Part shown: piece by piece, positions 2,904 to 62,285 of the stretch
How the letters are laid out: each line of letters opens with the position of its first letter
Numbering within the stretch: the first letter of the stretch is position 1
Source: a phage
Length of the DNA: 64,000 bases
Direction: 5' to 3' (one strand)
Sequence record: PX880103.1
Program-made: the position numbers and the translations under genes
The notes under the pieces: model-generated
Told to the model about the DNA's origin: nothing
The model's input: the letters and a program-made list of their open reading frames with translations, nothing else
Databases searched by the model: none

Positions 2904-2944
2904 AGTATTTTCCTCAGTAAGGGGCCGAAGCCCCTCATTTTATT

Positions 2945-3785: not shown

Positions 3786-3817
3786 GGAAAATAAAAAAGG
3801 ACTCCCGAAGGAGTCCT
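3786..3817 (-). terminator. rho-independent terminator (hairpin ggactccttcgggagtcc + T-run on minus strand)
   Basis: Perfect GC-rich stem with TTCG loop followed by TTTTTTATTTT on the minus strand, just downstream of the 3822..3998 ORF. Confidence 0.55.
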
Positions 3818-3821
3818 CAAC

Positions 3822-31581: not shown

Positions 31582-31605
31582 AGAGGGCTTCGGCCCTCTA
31601 AGGAT
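31582..31605 (+). terminator. hairpin (agagggcttcggccctct) after gene 37; weak terminator or RNA stability element
   Basis: GC-rich stem with TTCG loop followed by a T-poor tail. Confidence 0.4.
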
Positions 31606-38964: not shown

Positions 38965-39010
38965 GTTCCTCCGTAGTTGATAGGGTAATAGTACCACGGA
39001 AGAACAGTCT
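38965..39010 (-). promoter_or_regulatory. sigma70-type early promoter
   Basis: Minus-strand GTTTAC and TAnnnT elements (plus: gtagttgatagggtaatagtaccac ... tgtaaacaac). Confidence 0.45.
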
Positions 39011-39308
39011 TGTAAACAACTTTTTTAAAAATATTCGTAATAAATGTGAATACCAACTACTACCGCTGAAACCTGTGCAACCCACCACGCACAAGCAATA
39101 AGTACAGAATTCATAATTTTCATAATAACCTCATTACAAAAGTAAATATTAAACAAATTACTGGAATACTAATTAACCAAACAAAACACCACCACAATGA
39201 ACTCATAGCTCAATCTCAGCGATTTTCATTTCATTCTCCAAATCCGTATCAGTTGATAGTTGTATAGTACCACGGTCCTTGTGGTATGTAAACTGTTTTG
39301 TGAATTTT

Positions 39309-39866
39309 TTAAATGAAAAGATACCATCCATTGTAGTTGCTTTTTCTTACAACCTTACGAAGGTCTTCTCTGTCACCGATGAACTTCGGAGTGTACTGGA
39401 TGACACCTGGATGAATTTCTTTAGTGTTGAATATAATTATACAGTCAGCGACTTGATGATTTAGAATGGGCCCTAGATTTATTCCAGAACCGTATGGATA
39501 CTCTCCGCTGCATCCTGTTGTTACAGAAATCCAACGTGAGTCAGTTTGGTGTGTCTTAACTTCTACACGAAGCCCGCAGTATTTTGGATGTGCTAAAACA
39601 TCCCATGCATATGTGTACGGATCATCGACATCTTCTTGGCCTTTATTGACATACCCGCTTAGCCAATCTGCTACAAAAAATTCTGCGTACACAGCGATAC
39701 GGCATCTTTCGATAACTTCTGCCTTATCCTGATTTGGGTTTTGTTTTAAAGAGTATCTTGCAGTATCAGCAATTTTGGCCTTCATTTCACTAGTCAAGTC
39801 ACTGTTCGATAGGGTAAATGACGGAATCTGAAATAGTCTCTGCAAACCCGGATTCGTTTTCTGCAT
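39309..39866 (-). CDS. denB: endonuclease IV
   Basis: 185 aa = T4 DenB length; position between ndd cluster and rIIB. Confidence 0.85.
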   Translation of the reverse strand: MQKTNPGLQRLFQIPSFTLSNSDLTSEMKAKIADTARYSLKQNPNQDKAEVIERCRIAVYAEFFVADWLSGYVNKGQEDVDDPYTYAWDVLAHPKYCGLRVEVKTHQTDSRWISVTTGCSGEYPYGSGINLGPILNHQVADCIIIFNTKEIHPGVIQYTPKFIGDREDLRKVVRKSNYNGWYLFI

Positions 39867-39953
39867 TTAAACTTTCCTTTTATGTCGGAATCACTGGTAT
39901 TCATATAATAAATCATAATTTCTCTTAAAACAAAAGGGCCGAAGCCCTTTATT

Positions 39954-40148
39954 TTACTTGAATTGTGCAATTCTTTTCTCTAGACATTCAGCATAAGATT
40001 TCATTGAGATAAACTGCGAAAGCAGCAGTTCTTGCTCAACTGCACTAACTGTTAGAAACTTTGCGCTTTCTAAAAATTTACTCAGTGCATTAATTTTGAG
40101 CATTAATTGATCGTATTCTTCTTTTACTCGTGCTTGATAACCTAACAT
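39954..40148 (-). CDS. hypothetical helical protein flanked by near-identical hairpins
   Basis: 64-aa ORF; hairpins aagggccgaagccctt at ~39934-39951 and ~40161-40176. Confidence 0.5.
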   Translation of the reverse strand: MLGYQARVKEEYDQLMLKINALSKFLESAKFLTVSAVEQELLLSQFISMKSYAECLEKRIAQFK

Positions 40149-40176
40149 AATTTTCCTTAGTTAAGGGCCGAAGCCC

Positions 40177-41115
40177 TTATTTAAATTGTTCAGTAACGTC
40201 TTCAACTACTTCATATTGGCAGGTACGCATTTTAGCATCGTTGTAATCAATCGGAATTGATACTACATCGCGAGGATGAACTTTAACTTTTACAACTCGG
40301 CTGGTTGAACTACCAAAGTGACGAATATAAGATTTAGAACACACATGCAGACCACGAGAACAAGTCTGTGTATCATCGTCATTCACACGAGTACGCGGCA
40401 TTTTAACTACTTTACCCGGACTGTTATCAAAGGTATTTGAGTGACAGTCAAAGTAATTGCTACGAACTACTTTCCAAGCATAGAAGTAACCATCTTCTGT
40501 AATTTCAATATCGTTTGCTACCAAGAAATCAAAGAGTCGAGATACCGCTTTTTGGCTTGGGTTTTCCAACAGATTTTCCAAGAACGGAAAATAAAATTCA
40601 AAGTTTTCGCCTTTTTCCATCGAGTCAAGAATACGATCAACCAAACCAGACCGCAATTCAATATTTTGATAGAACAAGCTTCCACCTTCAATTCGAACAT
40701 CGCCGGAAATATATTTTTCAACAGCACGACGAACATTAATTTTTTGTGCCGCTTCTTCCAACTTATCCGCTACAAGCAGATTAAGAATTTCCTGGAAGTT
40801 TGAATGAGTATTAGGAGTTGCGTTATAAGTTACGCCATCAACAGTAATTGAAATGAATTTTTTAGATGCATTCCAAATAATGTCAGATTTAGCAACTGGA
40901 GCAATAACTGCATCGCTATTAACTTTAACTGTAATATCACCGCTAATAGTAACTTTAGGGTGTTTAGCTTCTTCAGCATTTTTCAAAACACGGCGGATTG
41001 TGTCAACCGATACACCTTGCCAATCAGCCAATTCCTGTTGGGTATAATTACCACTTGAATACAGCTTAACAATTTCAGCTTGTTCGTTTTTGGTCAGGCA
41101 TTTAATATTGTACAT
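40177..41115 (-). CDS. rIIB: RIIB
   Basis: 312 aa = T4 RIIB length; directly downstream of rIIA. Confidence 0.92.
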   Translation of the reverse strand: MYNIKCLTKNEQAEIVKLYSSGNYTQQELADWQGVSVDTIRRVLKNAEEAKHPKVTISGDITVKVNSDAVIAPVAKSDIIWNASKKFISITVDGVTYNATPNTHSNFQEILNLLVADKLEEAAQKINVRRAVEKYISGDVRIEGGSLFYQNIELRSGLVDRILDSMEKGENFEFYFPFLENLLENPSQKAVSRLFDFLVANDIEITEDGYFYAWKVVRSNYFDCHSNTFDNSPGKVVKMPRTRVNDDDTQTCSRGLHVCSKSYIRHFGSSTSRVVKVKVHPRDVVSIPIDYNDAKMRTCQYEVVEDVTEQFK

Positions 41116-41126
41116 AATTTTCCTTA

Positions 41127-43304
41127 TTAGGCCGCAAGGGCCTTCATAGTTTTAGCGATTTGGGAAACTTCATCATCACTTAAAGAGTTGCGATAACCGA
41201 TGAAGTCGGAAACAATACGGAATTTCTTGGTAAACTCAGCAACCATTTTATCACTGTTTTTTGAAGCATTATTTGATAATACATCAAAAAGATTAGTTAC
41301 TGTCCAGATGTCATGACCGATGGTATCTTTTCCACCATTGAAATATACGCCACGTAATGAACTAACTATATTAGCGAGTCGTGTATATTCTTCAGAAACT
41401 TCATCTGTACTGAAGTACTTCATCATAAAATCTAGTTCAGGATACTTGATAATTTTATCAATATATCGTTGAGCTGAACTTGAATAACCTACATACTTAT
41501 CATAATCTACATCATCAAAAGCATCTACATATAAATCACGCAGAGTTTCAAAAATACATTGGCACTGACCGAGTTCTTTTACCTTTTTCTGTAAAAGCGG
41601 ACGAATAACATAAAATTCATTAATGCCAATAAGATTAGCCATACGAATCAAAATATTCATAGATGGATGACAAAGAGATGTAGTACCATCCATAGAGAAA
41701 ATATCAGAACGATGCATATACGCTACATAACCAGTAATTTCATCTGCTTCTGATGTGAGCGTAAATAATTCCTCTTTTTCCCAGCGCCCGTCTTTAATTT
41801 CAAACTTAAATGCTGTAGCAGCTTTAGGACGAGGAGCTTTACTTTTAACTACCTTTGGAATATAACTTTTTACTAAAGCTTCAATTTCTGACAAATAATG
41901 AATGTTAACTTCATCACTTTCAAACATCGCCATAATATCAGGAAGTAAATCAATCTGCGATTCTACTTCTGGATTAATAAACAGAAGGCGTTCGTTATGA
42001 TGAATATTCAAAGTGTTATTAAATTCACTATCATCTAACGCTCGTGCTAATCCACGAACAATATTAACACGATTTTTAATATTATCAATAACGATATTAA
42101 TTTTTGTTGTATTAATACCAAACAGACGATAACTTGATGCAACGGCTGAAGTTTCATGACTTTGCTTAATGCGCTTCAGTCGAGGGTCAAGATTTACTTC
42201 ATACACAACTCCTGCATTGCATAACTTACTGTCAGGTTCAAACATGCTCTGCATCTTTTTATATGACAGATTTTTAGTCGTGAATTTGACTGAATTACTA
42301 ATCATATAATCTCGAGCAGAATACCCCATCTTCATCAATTCACGATATGTGTGACGAGGAGATGTAGATTCTTTAAATCGTTTTACATCTTCATTAAATG
42401 CTTTCTCACTAAGTTCTTTAACTCGTTCAATAATATTTTTACGAGTACGATCATCCAGTGAAAGAGCCTCACGAGATGGAGCAATATCAAGTGAACCCAT
42501 TGGAAACTTAATGTAATTCACTTCATTGCGGATGCTTAACCAGTTACGATCTCTAATAACACCATCGATAGGATAAACAATACCGCCATAGATAGCATAT
42601 AATCCACCGCGATCAGGCCAGTATCTTTCTGGATTTACGCCGTAATAATCATCGAAATCCGGAAAATAATCAATTTCGCGGTCAAGACCATTAATGATAG
42701 CCAAATCTTTGAATGGTCGCATGATATAAGAAACTTCATAAGCAAAGTTTCTAAAGTCTTTTTCTTCAACTGGAACTACGATTTCAATACCAGTTTTATC
42801 ATCTGGACCCATTTCTTTTACGAATGTAGGTTTAATCTGTGGACCATCACCATCCATGTAAGCTACATAACCACGAATTTCACCTTTATGATACGAAGTA
42901 ATACTAAATGTATCAGTATAACTAAACGGAGATTTAGAACCTAAACCAAATCCGCCAATGAAATCGTTAGATTCAGCCTTAGATGAACTGAAGTATGAAT
43001 TATACAGTCCAGGAGAATTATCATCACCCTGAATATCAAAATCACTCATACCCGGACCAAAATCTCGACAAACAAATCGTGGATCTAAACGTCCAGGAAC
43101 TTGTATGATAAATTTTTCAGGATTTCCATTGAGAGCATGGGCATCAATCATGTTAGTAATCAATTCACGAACTACTGCGCGAATCTTGTTTGTATACAAA
43201 TCAGATGACAGAATTTTAAATACTTTAGGAGATGCTGTGATGCTAAATGCTTTTGATTTAGAACCATTACCAAGAATTGTTTCTTTTTCAGTGGTGATAA
43301 TCAT
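41127..43304 (-). CDS. rIIA: RIIA
   Basis: 725 aa = T4 RIIA length; GHKL-ATPase-like N-terminal region. Confidence 0.93.
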
Positions 43305-56054: not shown

Positions 56055-56084
56055 AAATGAAAAAAGGACTCCCGAAGGAGTCCT
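56055..56084 (-). terminator. rho-independent terminator downstream of soc (same hairpin as at 3798-3817)
   Basis: ggactccttcgggagtcc + TTTTTTCATTTT on the minus strand. Confidence 0.55.
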
Positions 56085-56091
56085 TAAATTA

Positions 56092-61922: not shown

Positions 61923-62285
61923 TTAAAAGAATTTAAATTTTTTCTTTGACCTTTTATTAAATGCATCTTGCAGTTGCATTGTAATACATTTTTCTACATG
62001 AGGAGCTAACTCAGCTTTTCTTTCTTGGTCAAGAACAGCAAAGTCCATTACAACCTTTCCATCAACCCAATCCAGTTTAGTTACATACACTATATGTGTA
62101 GAACCATCTTCTAGTTTAATGACAATCTCCTGGATAACATTTTCCATAGCGGATTTAATTATCTTAAGAGACTCATTAAAAAGACGTTCTTTTCTTTCTT
62201 CTTCCCCCTCCGAAGAGGGGGATTCATCGATAATTTCTAGATCTAAATCTAAATCATCTTTATTCATTAAATTCTTCCATATCAC
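61923..62285 (-). CDS. 40: gp40 head vertex assembly chaperone
   Basis: 120-aa ORF between 41 and uvsX as in T4. Confidence 0.65.
   Translation of the reverse strand: MIWKNLMNKDDLDLDLEIIDESPSSEGEEERKERLFNESLKIIKSAMENVIQEIVIKLEDGSTHIVYVTKLDWVDGKVVMDFAVLDQERKAELAPHVEKCITMQLQDAFNKRSKKKFKFF

Follow-up and report, generated by a model that had tools for sequence, protein, structure and literature searches.

The small gene that separates rIIB from denB in this phage, a 64-aa helical ORF, is the T4 gene denB.1 (Y16O, 'Sequestin'), and the two near-identical hairpins on either side of it, referred to here as HP1 and HP2, are copies of the standard intercistronic C(UUCG)G tetraloop hairpin of T4, which is reused at many gene boundaries. 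The window, by which we mean the whole 64,000-nt stretch of PX880103.1 that was analysed, comes from a close relative of T4. Since the hairpins are of the standard T4 UUCG type and the ORF is the known denB.1, the feature is real yet ordinary for a T4-type phage, and already known. Overall, we favour, with a probability of roughly 65%, a reading in which both structures are T4 UUCG hairpins that owe their identity to reuse, HP2 would serve as a terminator, and HP1 would act at the RNA level as a 3'-end element.

The rIIB-denB junction and its hairpins

In the ORF list all genes at the junction lie on the minus strand, and mRNA sense is the minus strand. Read in that sense, the order is rIIA, rIIB, HP1, denB.1, HP2, the scar of a DUF7418 gene and denB, with rIIB upstream and denB downstream of denB.1. 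The rIIB gene (40177..41115, minus strand; 312 aa) was taken from the ORF list and matches the PHROG RIIB lysis inhibitor (E 8e-111); it is 97-99% identical to rIIB of T4 and RB14. HP1 (40162..40179, minus strand; UAAGGGC-UUCG-GCCCUUA, from sequence and fold) overlaps the rIIB TAA stop codon (40177-40179), which forms the outermost stem pairs, and it lies 5 nt 5' of the denB.1 Shine-Dalgarno (SD) sequence, its end being 13 nt 5' of the denB.1 AUG. The denB.1 translation initiation region (40145..40159, minus strand; UAAGGAAAAUUAUGU), delimited by repeat search and sequence, consists of the SD AAGGA and the AUG, and denB.1 itself, with an ATG start, occupies 39954..40148 on the minus strand (ORF list; Pfam PF21825). 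HP2 (39933..39950, minus strand; AAAGGGC-UUCG-GCCCUUU, from sequence, fold and terminator scan) begins 3 nt 3' of the denB.1 stop codon and runs into a U-tract (39927..39932, minus strand; sequence and terminator scan) that, together with the last stem bases, reads UUUUGUUUU. There follow a 40-aa remnant ORF (39794..39916, minus strand), recognised in alignments with RB14 and G3F8 as the scar of the DUF7418-gene deletion, and denB, encoding endonuclease IV (39309..39866, minus strand; 185 aa; PHROG DenB, E 5e-97).

The sequence-only reading had drawn attention to near-identical hairpins bracketing the ORF at 39954..40148, and the pair is real: an exact 16-nt direct repeat, AAGGGCCGAAGCCCTT, stands at 39934-39949 and again at 40163-40178, a spacing of 229 nt, and the hairpins each pair a stem of 7 bp with a loop of 4 nt. 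The site it gave was right, with positions off by 1-3 nt and HP1 reaching into the rIIB stop codon, but its parse of the hairpins as GGGCC-GAAG-GGCCC was mistaken. The plus strand parses as a GGGC/GCCC stem lengthened by A-U pairs around a CGAA loop, and on the minus strand, in mRNA sense, both sites read GGGC-UUCG-GCCC with a C-G closing pair, that is, C(UUCG)G. Folded as 41-nt RNAs, HP1 and HP2 reach -10.9 kcal/mol (z-score -2.8) and -13.1 kcal/mol (z-score -3.3), and the stem of HP2 can be extended by pairing of its A-tract with its U-tract. Both hairpins are also present in the minimum free energy and centroid structures of 141-nt context folds, which show no unusual stability (z -0.6 and -1.1).

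A chance origin of the repeat is ruled out by the 12-mer GGGCTTCGGCCC, which occurs four times in the window against an expectation of 0.06, a count reached in none of 100 shuffles. The other two exact copies (2922-2933, minus strand; 31585-31596, plus strand) are both followed directly by an SD and an ATG. Strong C(UUCG)G hairpins number nine in the window; one (62203-62222) is inside an ORF, and the eight that are intergenic are all in sense orientation, with UUCG on the mRNA strand, just 3' of a stop codon. Their sense-strand placement agrees with the published bias of T4 CTTCGG hairpins to the sense strand (PMC7165471), and T4 intergenic stem-loops often bear UUCG (PMC1702504). An Rfam search covering 39000-41500 (E<=1) returned nothing beyond two chance matches, and the hairpins belong to no family there. 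Extra-stable C(UUCG)G tetraloop hairpins were reportedly described in the intercistronic regions of phage T4 by Tuerk et al. in 1988. HP1 and HP2 have in common with the T4 hairpins the UUCG loop, the C-G closing pair, the short GC stem, the sense-strand intercistronic position and the multiple copies, and there is no essential difference between them. We believe that the near-identity of HP1 and HP2 would mainly reflect reuse of the stem preferred by T4, GGGC-UUCG-GCCC, and would not mark the ends of a recently inserted element. At the same time, the flanks of the two hairpins are alike as well, with AAAUAA upstream and, in RB14-type phages, UAAGGAAAA(A)UUAUG downstream; the pair may therefore have originated by duplication.

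Identity and distribution of denB.1

The 64-aa protein scores 68.7 bits with Pfam PF21825, whose gathering threshold is 24.8 bits (E 4.1e-19; residues 4-61 on profile positions 3-60 of 61), and shares a 90% cluster with UniProt P39251 (Y16O; 'protein in denB-rIIB intergenic region'); a PDB sequence search and NCBIfam returned no meaningful match. The T4 annotation of this ORF is denB.1 or T4p277, and it is ORF64 in D16359. Protein identity is 98.4% to the T4 reference denB.1 (AF158101/NP_049888), from which the present protein is one residue apart (MLGYQ here, MLAYQ in NC_000866), and 100% to the T4-labelled D16359 and OZ035787. The published primers for cloning T4 Y16O are the first 28 and last 32 nt of the ORF, and the denB.1 protein has been detected in T4 proteomics. 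PF21825 is the Sequestin family, of which T4 Y16O and other members have been shown to act as 3'cADPR sponges and thereby to block type I Thoeris (bioRxiv 10.1101/2025.07.12.664507). With PF21825, a length of 64 aa and the same locus in common with T4 Y16O, the present allele is predicted from orthology to bind 3'cADPR and to have anti-Thoeris activity.

About 497 of about 500 Tequatrovirus-type records contain denB.1, and HP2 was found in 11 of the 11 Tequatrovirus loci read. The gene is missing in Mosigvirus (RB69 and relatives in IMG/VR) and in Jiaodavirus, where rIIB is followed by a single UUCG hairpin with a U-tract and then by the DUF7418 gene. Other clades have a hairpin only 3' of denB.1, or the order rIIB-hairpin-denB with nothing between; most other genera have no hairpin 3' of denB.1, and in Winklervirus-like phages the two flanking hairpins differ in stem. 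On a rough rIIB tree the lineages without denB.1 are sisters of lineages that contain it, a placement that implies at least two losses, and denB.1 appears to be ancestral at the rIIB-denB locus. No breakpoints could be mapped between loci that differ in denB.1 content, because genomes with and without the gene are only 65-75% identical in DNA. The single hairpin of the denB.1-less genera fits the loss of a hairpin-bounded module, without proving it.

The sole recent indel at the junction is the loss of the DUF7418 gene in the present phage and in T4. In RB14-type phages, and in most others that are T4-like, this gene (RB32ORF268c / RB69ORF272c) has its place between HP2 and denB, and alignments with RB14 and G3F8 place the deletion junction near 39870-39880, with endpoints at imperfect repeats inside the DUF7418 ORF and not at the hairpins. 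A tblastn search found 346 records with a full-length gene and about 250 further matching records, of which most, among the matches listed, keep only a C-terminal remnant; the remnant family is Pfam DUF7418. The earlier suggestion that the hairpins delimit an inserted cassette is partly supported on the deep scale, where the denB.1-less Mosigvirus (RB69) and Jiaodavirus have one UUCG hairpin, but not on the recent scale, where denB.1 is apparently ancestral and almost always retained, the indel is off the hairpins, and no promoter is present. Over long times, such hairpins would nonetheless mark the joints at which small accessory genes, denB.1 included, have been lost or exchanged.

Roles of the two hairpins in expression

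HP2 and its U-tract (GCCCUUUUGUUUU) were scored terminator-like on the minus strand by the terminator scan, with 5 T within the 8-base scoring window after the stem. In common with intrinsic terminators, HP2 is a GC-rich stem-loop with its UUUUGUUUU tail directly after a stop codon, and we propose that it would act as an intrinsic terminator or attenuator closing the rIIB-denB.1 unit. Transcription would reach denB by read-through past HP2, since no promoter is visible for denB itself. HP1, unlike an intrinsic terminator, has no U-tract and leads into a ribosome-binding site: it is followed by UUAACUAAGGAAAAUUAUG, which is that of denB.1. The sequence after HP1, ACUAAGGAAA, has one T in 9-10 nt, and the terminator scan did not call HP1 on the minus strand. 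The proposal of paired terminators is therefore supported for HP2, with its U-tract, and not for HP1, which runs into the denB.1 ribosome site. When the junction is compared across T4-like genomes, the arrangement is universal within Tequatrovirus, but the two hairpins do not both look like ordinary terminators.

Of the 53 T4-like loci surveyed, 47 keep a hairpin just 3' of rIIB, which was seen in Tequatro-, Mosig-, Dhaka-, Gapriver-, Kanagawa-, Marfa-, Jiaoda- and Winklervirus and in further IMG/VR clades. Its closing C-G pair is invariant across 21 distinct homologous hairpins, and its 4-nt loop, usually UUCG and rarely UUUG, UCCG or UCAG, stays UNCG-type while the stems covary. Compensatory changes occur in four of the six stem pairs across the surveyed loci; in an alignment that was anchored on the hairpins detected in each locus, and is biased towards pairing for that reason, paired cells make up 97.6%, and changes on both sides of a pair occur in 27 cells, where shuffles give 7.3. 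The hairpin at the HP1 position has only 1-3 T in the next 9 nt in all Tequatro-, Dhaka- and Gaprivervirus loci, and a U-tract (5-8 T) in several other genera, represented by RB69, Jiaodavirus, Marfavirus and Winklervirus. The ancestral role may therefore simply be termination, and HP1 in the present phage could be a weakened relic of an ancestral terminator.

We regard HP1 as what is probably the ancient rIIB 3'-end hairpin. Because it has no U-tract in Tequatrovirus, termination there is probably inefficient, and HP1 more likely works at the RNA level, as a stable block to 3'-5' exonucleases or as a pause point. It would then give the rIIB mRNA a protected 3' end, and might also be a fixed structural spacer that keeps the denB.1 ribosome site single-stranded, thereby uncoupling early rIIB expression from the later expression of denB.1 and denB. 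Published T4 omics class the rIIA and rIIB transcripts as 'early' and those of denB.1 and denB as 'middle' (PMC9697503), and the split between rIIB and denB.1 therefore puts the kinetic break at HP1 and not at HP2, with the caution that these classes are coarse time-course clusters which differential decay or an unrecognised promoter could also yield. MotA-like sites are present upstream of rIIB; from the rIIB start to denB, a sigma70 scan and MotA-box patterns found no sigma70-like or MotA-type promoter. At the junction the T4 GenBank/RefSeq records hold CDS features only, with no terminators, promoters or regulatory features, and no T4 transcript-end or 3'-end map was found in the literature covered.

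A repeat search showed that the 15 nt of the denB.1 initiation region (UAAGGAAAAUUAUGU) recur exactly in the rIIB initiation region at 41112-41126. RegA translational operators are unstructured, rich in A+U and inclusive of the AUG. That of rIIB is AAAAUUAUGUAC (PMC3014915), and the corresponding 10-mer is found four times in the window, where 1.05 would be expected. The denB.1 ribosome site, which copies a site repressed by RegA in rIIB, is a candidate RegA-type site. Processing by RegB was rejected, because the junction has no GGAG. The arms of a perfect 14-nt inverted repeat lie in rIIB (40627-40640) and denB.1 (40107-40120). Considered as a long-range RNA pairing, this repeat is probably fortuitous, because outside Tequatrovirus only 7-11 of the 14 pairs persist and compensatory changes are lacking.

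Related systems and alternative readings

Like the HP1 and HP2 units, the promoter-early stem-loop (PeSL) cassettes of T4-type phages (Arbiol et al. 2010, PMC2839356; Comeau et al. 2014, PMC4122927) border small accessory ORFs of a plastic region with a stem-loop that is followed by an SD and a start codon. An apparent further likeness is that an ORF flanked by two elements in one phage corresponds, in a relative, to one element without the ORF. An SD and start codon of the PeSL type follow each hairpin, with HP1 leading into AAGGAAAAUUAUG (denB.1) and HP2 into AAGGAAAAAUUAUG (the DUF7418 gene in RB14, the scar in the window). The consensus PeSL promoter of the T4/PST pair is sigma70-like and early, TTTACW-N17-TAYWAT (PMC4122927). 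Unlike PeSLs, the units here have no such early promoter on the minus strand between 40180 and 39866, where no MotA-box promoter was found either, and they share 16 nt and about 15 nt of initiation region, not about 100 bp. The PeSL-like pattern of element and ORF loss is seen between genera (Mosigvirus, Jiaodavirus) and not within Tequatrovirus. Elsewhere in the window, true PeSL-like units, with a hairpin, a U-tract and GTTTAC-N17-TATAAT, occur at 3797-3818 and 56064-56085, both on the minus strand. Lambdoid morons are like denB.1 in being small accessory host-interaction genes bordered by regulatory hairpins, but denB.1 has no promoter of its own, shows no sign of recent acquisition and is syntenic across many genera; the novel ORFs of T4-like phages are not moron-like (Nolan et al. 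2006, PMC1524935). Because no denB.1 promoter was found between the rIIB start and denB, both the 'moron' and the PeSL readings of denB.1 were rejected.

A looser relation to PeSLs might still be entertained, in which the hairpins bound a mobile module and homologous recombination between the HP1 and HP2 direct repeats, with their similar SD/AUG flanks, excises or inserts denB.1 in PeSL or mini-circle style. The single-hairpin junction of Mosigvirus and Jiaodavirus is the expected product of such an exchange, the rough rIIB tree with its two or more implied losses and the clades with a hairpin only after denB.1 or with rIIB-hairpin-denB point the same way, the PeSL model is a published one for T4-type phages, and anti-defence genes such as denB.1 are a typically accessory class. 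We nonetheless consider this unlikely, given an exact repeat of 16 nt against the roughly 100 bp conserved in PeSLs, with no promoter included, the near-complete retention of denB.1 in Tequatrovirus-type records, and a sole recent indel that used imperfect repeats within the DUF7418 ORF; the unlike stems of the Winklervirus-like hairpins also count against it, as does a divergence between genomes with and without denB.1 that is too great for breakpoint mapping. Somewhat more doubtful is a processing-defined mRNA, raised already in the sequence-only reading, whereby cleavage just upstream of HP1 and termination or trimming at HP2 produce a short denB.1 message with a hairpin at each end, an arrangement that would keep the sponge protein, which has to be abundant, strongly and lastingly expressed. 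Its appeal lies in the closeness of the hairpins to the AUG (13 nt) and the stop codon (3 nt), the AU-rich single-stranded stretches on both sides of HP1, and denB.1 transcript kinetics that are unlike those of rIIB; 5'-terminal stem-loops and 3' hairpins are, in addition, established mRNA stabilisers in E. coli. However, the junction offers no GGAG for RegB, the shared transcript class of denB.1 and denB suggests co-transcription through HP2, and the two-cap design is no conserved requirement of the gene, given that a hairpin after denB.1 is missing from most other genera.

That both hairpins are simply ordinary paired intrinsic terminators seems to us very improbable. Their GC-rich stems, stable tetraloops and positions just after stop codons would suit the idea, as would the U-tract on the rIIB-proximal hairpin of RB69, Jiaodavirus, Marfavirus and Winklervirus and the shift of transcript class across HP1. 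Against it stand the 1-3 T in the 9 nt after HP1 in Tequatro-, Dhaka- and Gaprivervirus and the terminator scan, which left HP1 uncalled on the minus strand; and efficient termination at HP1 would shut off denB.1, which lacks its own promoter, yet the protein is detected. An element acting in the DNA, whether a cruciform, replication origin, packaging signal or nuclease target, is barely credible: the palindrome can form in DNA and is terminator-like on the plus strand too, but all eight intergenic strong hairpins have UUCG and not CGAA on the mRNA strand, T4 has the same published sense-strand bias (PMC7165471), and the loop is kept UNCG-type while the stems covary. We regard as improbable, too, the broader proposition that the hairpin pair makes denB.1 a functional unit, whether by serving as promoter-less 'mini-PeSL' joints for recombination, by capping a very stable monocistronic sponge mRNA at its 5' and 3' ends, or by both. 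If true, it would represent a general T-even way to package and tune small counter-defence genes, with 'mini-PeSL' joints allowing the Sequestin (denB.1) module to be lost or regained by T4-like phages.

Regardless of these alternatives, the reading we prefer, one of reused T4 UUCG hairpins, makes the locus a textbook case of T4 punctuating its early operons with one extra-stable RNA hairpin, and no discovery. What the present analysis adds is that the copy of the hairpin behind rIIB keeps its position while its stems covary, and that it is without a U-tract in Tequatrovirus. The anti-Thoeris sponge gene denB.1 is now set in a regulatory context: it has no promoter of its own and a terminator-like hairpin after it, and it sits behind a conserved rIIB 3' hairpin with an rIIB-like, putatively RegA-type, ribosome site. 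The comparative result, that the hairpin after rIIB persists (47/53 loci) while the small genes behind it vary, may be of modest use, and bears on the gain, loss and expression of counter-defence genes in T-even phages and on the role of UUCG hairpins that have no U-tract tail.

Identity of denB.1 and its flanking hairpins

On the - strand at ~39300-41200, rIIA (41127-43304), rIIB (40177-41115), a 64-aa ORF (39954-40148) and denB (39309-39866) follow one another; all were taken from the ORF list, rIIB and denB with PHROG matches. Hundreds of Tequatrovirus genomes match the region, which shares 97.6% identity with a T4 assembly, and the T4 reference counterpart of the 64-aa ORF is denB.1 (T4p277, 167743-167937), between denB and rIIB. 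It was labelled ORF64 in the 1990s entry D16359, and UniProt P39251, 'Uncharacterized 7.5 kDa protein in denB-rIIB intergenic region', falls in the same 90%-identity cluster. The product scores 68.7 bits with Pfam PF21825 (crAss001_48-related; threshold 24.8) and also matches phrog_774. PF21825 proteins ('Sequestin') bind and sequester 3'cADPR, inhibiting type I Thoeris, and the 64-aa T4 protein Y16O renders phage SBSphiJ Thoeris-resistant (bioRxiv 10.1101/2025.07.12.664507). Because the published T4-Y16O primers exactly match our ORF over its first 28 nt and last 32 nt, Y16O is denB.1, and the denB.1 protein has been detected in T4 proteomics (PMC9697503). By that identity and that detection, denB.1 is a real, expressed counter-defence gene whose function, now assigned, is carried over from T4 Y16O.

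The hairpin pair that the sequence-only reading placed around this ORF is confirmed. HP1, between rIIB and denB.1, and HP2, between denB.1 and denB, share the exact 16-nt repeat AAGGGCCGAAGCCCTT (+ strand; 40163-40178 and 39934-39949, spacing 229 nt), and the core 12-mer GGGCTTCGGCCC has four copies in the 64-kb window, against 0.06 expected from shuffling. As 41-nt RNAs they fold at -10.9 and -13.1 kcal/mol, respectively (z about -3), and both are present in the MFE and centroid structures of 141-nt context folds, the overall stability of which is not unusual (z -0.6 and -1.1). The parse first proposed, GGGCC-GAAG-GGCCC, and its coordinates need small corrections, however: the mRNA sense is GGGC-UUCG-GCCC, within UAAGGGC-UUCG-GCCCUUA for HP1 (40162-40179, -) and AAAGGGC-UUCG-GCCCUUU for HP2 (39933-39950, -). 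In the T4 reference NC_000866/AF158101 (L004, 3155-3485) one G is missing from HP1 and one C from HP2, and in D16359 (L011) only the HP1 G; the missing bases weaken both predicted stems, HP1 in NC_000866 folding at only -4.4 kcal/mol. Both stems are complete in the window, the recent T4 assembly OZ035787 (L012), RB68 and all other relatives, and the gaps probably go back to gel compression of GC hairpins, a legacy sequencing error.

UUCG hairpins across the window

A census of UUCG-loop hairpins over the 64-kb window returned nine strong examples with stems of 7-9 bp, eight of them intergenic, and in all eight the UUCG lies on the sense strand of the adjacent genes and the hairpin starts no more than 7 nt from a stop codon or overlaps it. 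These intergenic hairpins, HP1 and HP2 included, are the C(UUCG)G class of T4 reportedly described by Tuerk et al. in 1988. In T4, CTTCGG is flanked by self-complementary sequence on the sense strand only (PMC7165471), and the UUCG tetraloop is frequent in intergenic stem-loops (PMC1702504). The sole non-intergenic strong hairpin, 8-bp UCCCCCUC-UUCG-GAGGGGGA at 62203-62222(-), lies within a 114-aa ORF (61923-62267), ~45 nt past its start and just downstream of a 393-aa uvsX-sized ORF.

Two designs recur. One, a hairpin with a U-tract and then an early promoter, is found at 3797-3818(-) and 56064-56085(-), with GTTTAC-N17-TATAAT-like boxes behind each; judged by sequence, these units look like the promoter-early stem-loop (PeSL) elements of the Krisch laboratory. 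The two hairpins are near-identical 9-bp UUCG structures ~52 kb apart (arms GAGGACUCC or AAGGACUCC, the loop, then GGAGUCCUU, with a U-tract on each), and with the T4 early-promoter-like GTTTAC...TATAAT/TAGTAT behind them they resemble genuine PeSL-type terminator-promoter units. In the other design, seen in HP1, 2918-2937(-) and 31582-31599(+), the hairpin has no tail, and SD and AUG come next, within 11-14 nt. The last two, which repeat the hairpin-then-ribosome-site design of HP1, are further exact GGGCTTCGGCCC copies starting just past a stop codon, and 31582-31599(+) sits between a 1180-aa gp37-like ORF and a 259-aa gp38-like ORF. HP2 stands between the designs, having a U-tract, UUUUGUUUU, and a terminator-like score on the - strand, with no promoter after it but the SD and AUG of a small ORF. 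A further hairpin, AGGCC-CUUGC-GGCCU at 41129-41143(-), occupies the last rIIA codons (...KALAA*) and ends at the stop codon, directly before the rIIB SD and AUG; it adds a third to the successive junctions (rIIA/rIIB, rIIB/denB.1 and denB.1/next) laid out as a hairpin followed by UAAGGAAAAUUAUG. T4 reuse of one favoured stem, present in four exact copies in the window, best accounts for the near-identity of HP1 and HP2; local duplication is another possible source.

The rIIB-denB junction across T4-like phages

We surveyed the junction in 53 loci, comprising 13 GenBank records from nine genera and 40 IMG/VR loci retrieved by rIIB alignment. The arrangement is near-universal in Tequatrovirus but varies among genera, in six types. 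Type A (Dhaka-, Gapriver-, Kanagawa- and Marfavirus) is rIIB-hairpin-denB.1-DUF7418-denB, with no hairpin after denB.1; type B (Tequatrovirus, and Winklervirus-like phages, in which the two stems differ) has a hairpin on each side of denB.1, and type C (the window, T4) is B with DUF7418 deleted. Type D (Mosigvirus/RB69, Jiaodavirus) is rIIB-hairpin(+U-tract)-DUF7418-denB, without denB.1; in type E (L044, L046, L047) a divergent denB.1-like ORF, its start overlapping the rIIB stop codon, precedes the sole hairpin; and type F (L048, L049, L053) is rIIB-hairpin-denB directly. L051 joins rIIB to denB directly across a 47-nt gap, where a hairpin was not confirmed. In the type E loci (IMG/VR T4-like contigs, ~900-1140), the overlap UAAUG starts the denB.1-like ORF (MLPHQHRVVQERDDL...), which the blastp screen missed, and the only UUCG hairpin, AAAGCCC-UUCG-GGGCUUU with a U-tract, lies 3' of it; from this layout, the Sequestin gene can have a hairpin upstream, downstream or at both ends.

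Downstream of rIIB, 47 of the 53 loci (all but L044-L047, L051 and L054) have a stable hairpin with a 4-nt loop, which is almost always UUCG and in rare cases UUUG, UCCG or UCAG. Across 21 distinct versions, in an alignment anchored on the hairpins themselves, which qualifies both figures, 97.6% of cells are paired and 27 are doubly changed, against 7.3 in shuffles; four of the six stem pairs have compensatory changes (G-C, A-U, C-G), and register sliding destroys the signal. This conservation and covariation argue that HP1 is an ancient 3'-end RNA element of rIIB. D, F and some A genomes have the rIIB-proximal U-tract, which is absent (1-3 T in 9 nt) from Tequatro-, Dhaka- and Gaprivervirus.

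Between HP2 and denB, RB14, G3F8 and about half of the Tequatrovirus matches listed carry a 109-aa gene (RB32ORF268c, RB69ORF272c homologue, Pfam DUF7418). By tblastn it is full-length in 346 phage records, while the remaining ~250 matching records mostly hold, among the matches listed, the C-terminal remnant alone; about half of Tequatrovirus genomes and most other T4-like genera have kept it intact. An internal deletion of ~213 bp in the window, T4 and RB68 has spared its SD, first ~13 codons and 3' end, leaving in the window a 40-aa ORF (39794-39916, -), the T4 version of which is annotated 'ORF37' in D16359. Imperfect direct repeats, UAAAAG-AGAUUAAACUGCA and UAAAAAGGAAAGUCUAAAUGCA, rather than a hairpin, flank the deletion junction.

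A small inserted cassette had been proposed here, and a hairpin-bounded mobile module around denB.1 does fit the presence and absence of the gene between genera. In a rough NJ tree of the rIIB C-terminus, Mosigvirus is sister to Tequatrovirus and Jiaodavirus to Marfavirus, the first of each pair lacking denB.1, and the simplest history is an ancestral denB.1 lost repeatedly. Each inferred loss leaves rIIB, one hairpin and the next gene, which is, circumstantially, the product expected if two flanking hairpins had recombined, in line with the PeSL model of stem-loop recombination (PMC2839356, PMC4122927); genomes differing in denB.1 content are too diverged for breakpoint mapping. Against such a module, the shared repeat is a short homology of just 16 nt and holds no promoter, the flanking stems are unlike each other in Winklervirus-like phages, and the sole recent indel at the junction, the DUF7418 deletion, did not use the hairpins. 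Nor does denB.1 come and go within Tequatrovirus, where it is essentially universal (at least 89% protein identity in ~497 records, versus ~500 with a T4-type rIIB region; HP2 in 11 of 11 loci read). We consider a mobile module rather unlikely.

Transcription through the hairpins and their proposed roles

Sigma70-type and MotA-box scans found no sigma70-like or MotA-type promoter from the rIIB start to denB, and MotA-like sites lie upstream of rIIB (41245-41268, 41499-41523). Transcripts of denB.1 and denB must thus start at the rII promoters and run through HP1 and HP2. In T4 time-resolved omics, rIIA and rIIB transcripts are 'early' and those of denB.1 and denB 'middle' (PMC9697503); since the early class extends up to rIIB and the middle class begins at denB.1, the kinetic break is at HP1, not HP2. 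The denB.1 translation initiation region, UAAGGAAAAUUAUGU (40145-40159, -), is an exact 15-nt copy of that of rIIB (41112-41126, -), which contains the published RegA operator AAAAUUAUGUAC (PMC3014915), so denB.1 may also be RegA-repressed. The RB14-type DUF7418 gene has UAAGGAAAAAUUAUGA in its initiation region. A 14-nt perfect inverted repeat between denB.1 (40107-40120, EEYDQ) and rIIB (40627-40640, VDRIL), 506 nt apart, is probably fortuitous; it is perfect in Tequatrovirus only, with 7-11 of 14 pairs and no compensatory changes elsewhere.

Overall, we favour, at a probability of about 0.65, a picture in which a known gene, denB.1, is flanked by reused T4 hairpins, HP2 serving as a terminator and HP1 acting at the RNA level. 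We are very confident of the identities of gene and hairpin class, moderately so of HP2 as a putative terminator, and less so of exactly what HP1 does. Most rIIB-denB.1 transcripts would end at HP2, working as an intrinsic terminator or attenuator, and denB would be supplied by read-through. HP1, with no U-tract, would act mainly at the RNA level: it would give the abundant early rII message a 3' end resistant to exonucleases, or a pause or barrier, and would serve as a rigid spacer holding the denB.1 ribosome site unpaired, so delaying and lowering expression of the genes behind it.

The sequence-only reading had suggested paired terminators, which suits HP2, with its U-tract and terminator-like score, but not HP1, which lacks the tract; that both are ordinary terminators is very unlikely, since termination at HP1 would silence denB.1, whose protein is detected. 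Its third suggestion, a processing-defined transcript, here a hairpin-capped monocistronic denB.1 mRNA, we judge unlikely, as the hairpin 3' of denB.1 is missing in most genera. An element working at the DNA level is contradicted by the strict sense-strand orientation and is extremely unlikely.

Already known, then, are the gene (denB.1, ORF64, Y16O) and its Sequestin function, the C(UUCG)G hairpin class, and the stem-loop-bounded modular shuffling of T4-type hyperplastic regions (PeSL). What is new is minor: the T4 reference probably has compression errors in both HP1 and HP2, a covarying hairpin at the rIIB 3' end is conserved in 47 of the 53 T4-like loci of the survey, and denB.1, behind that hairpin, is variably present.
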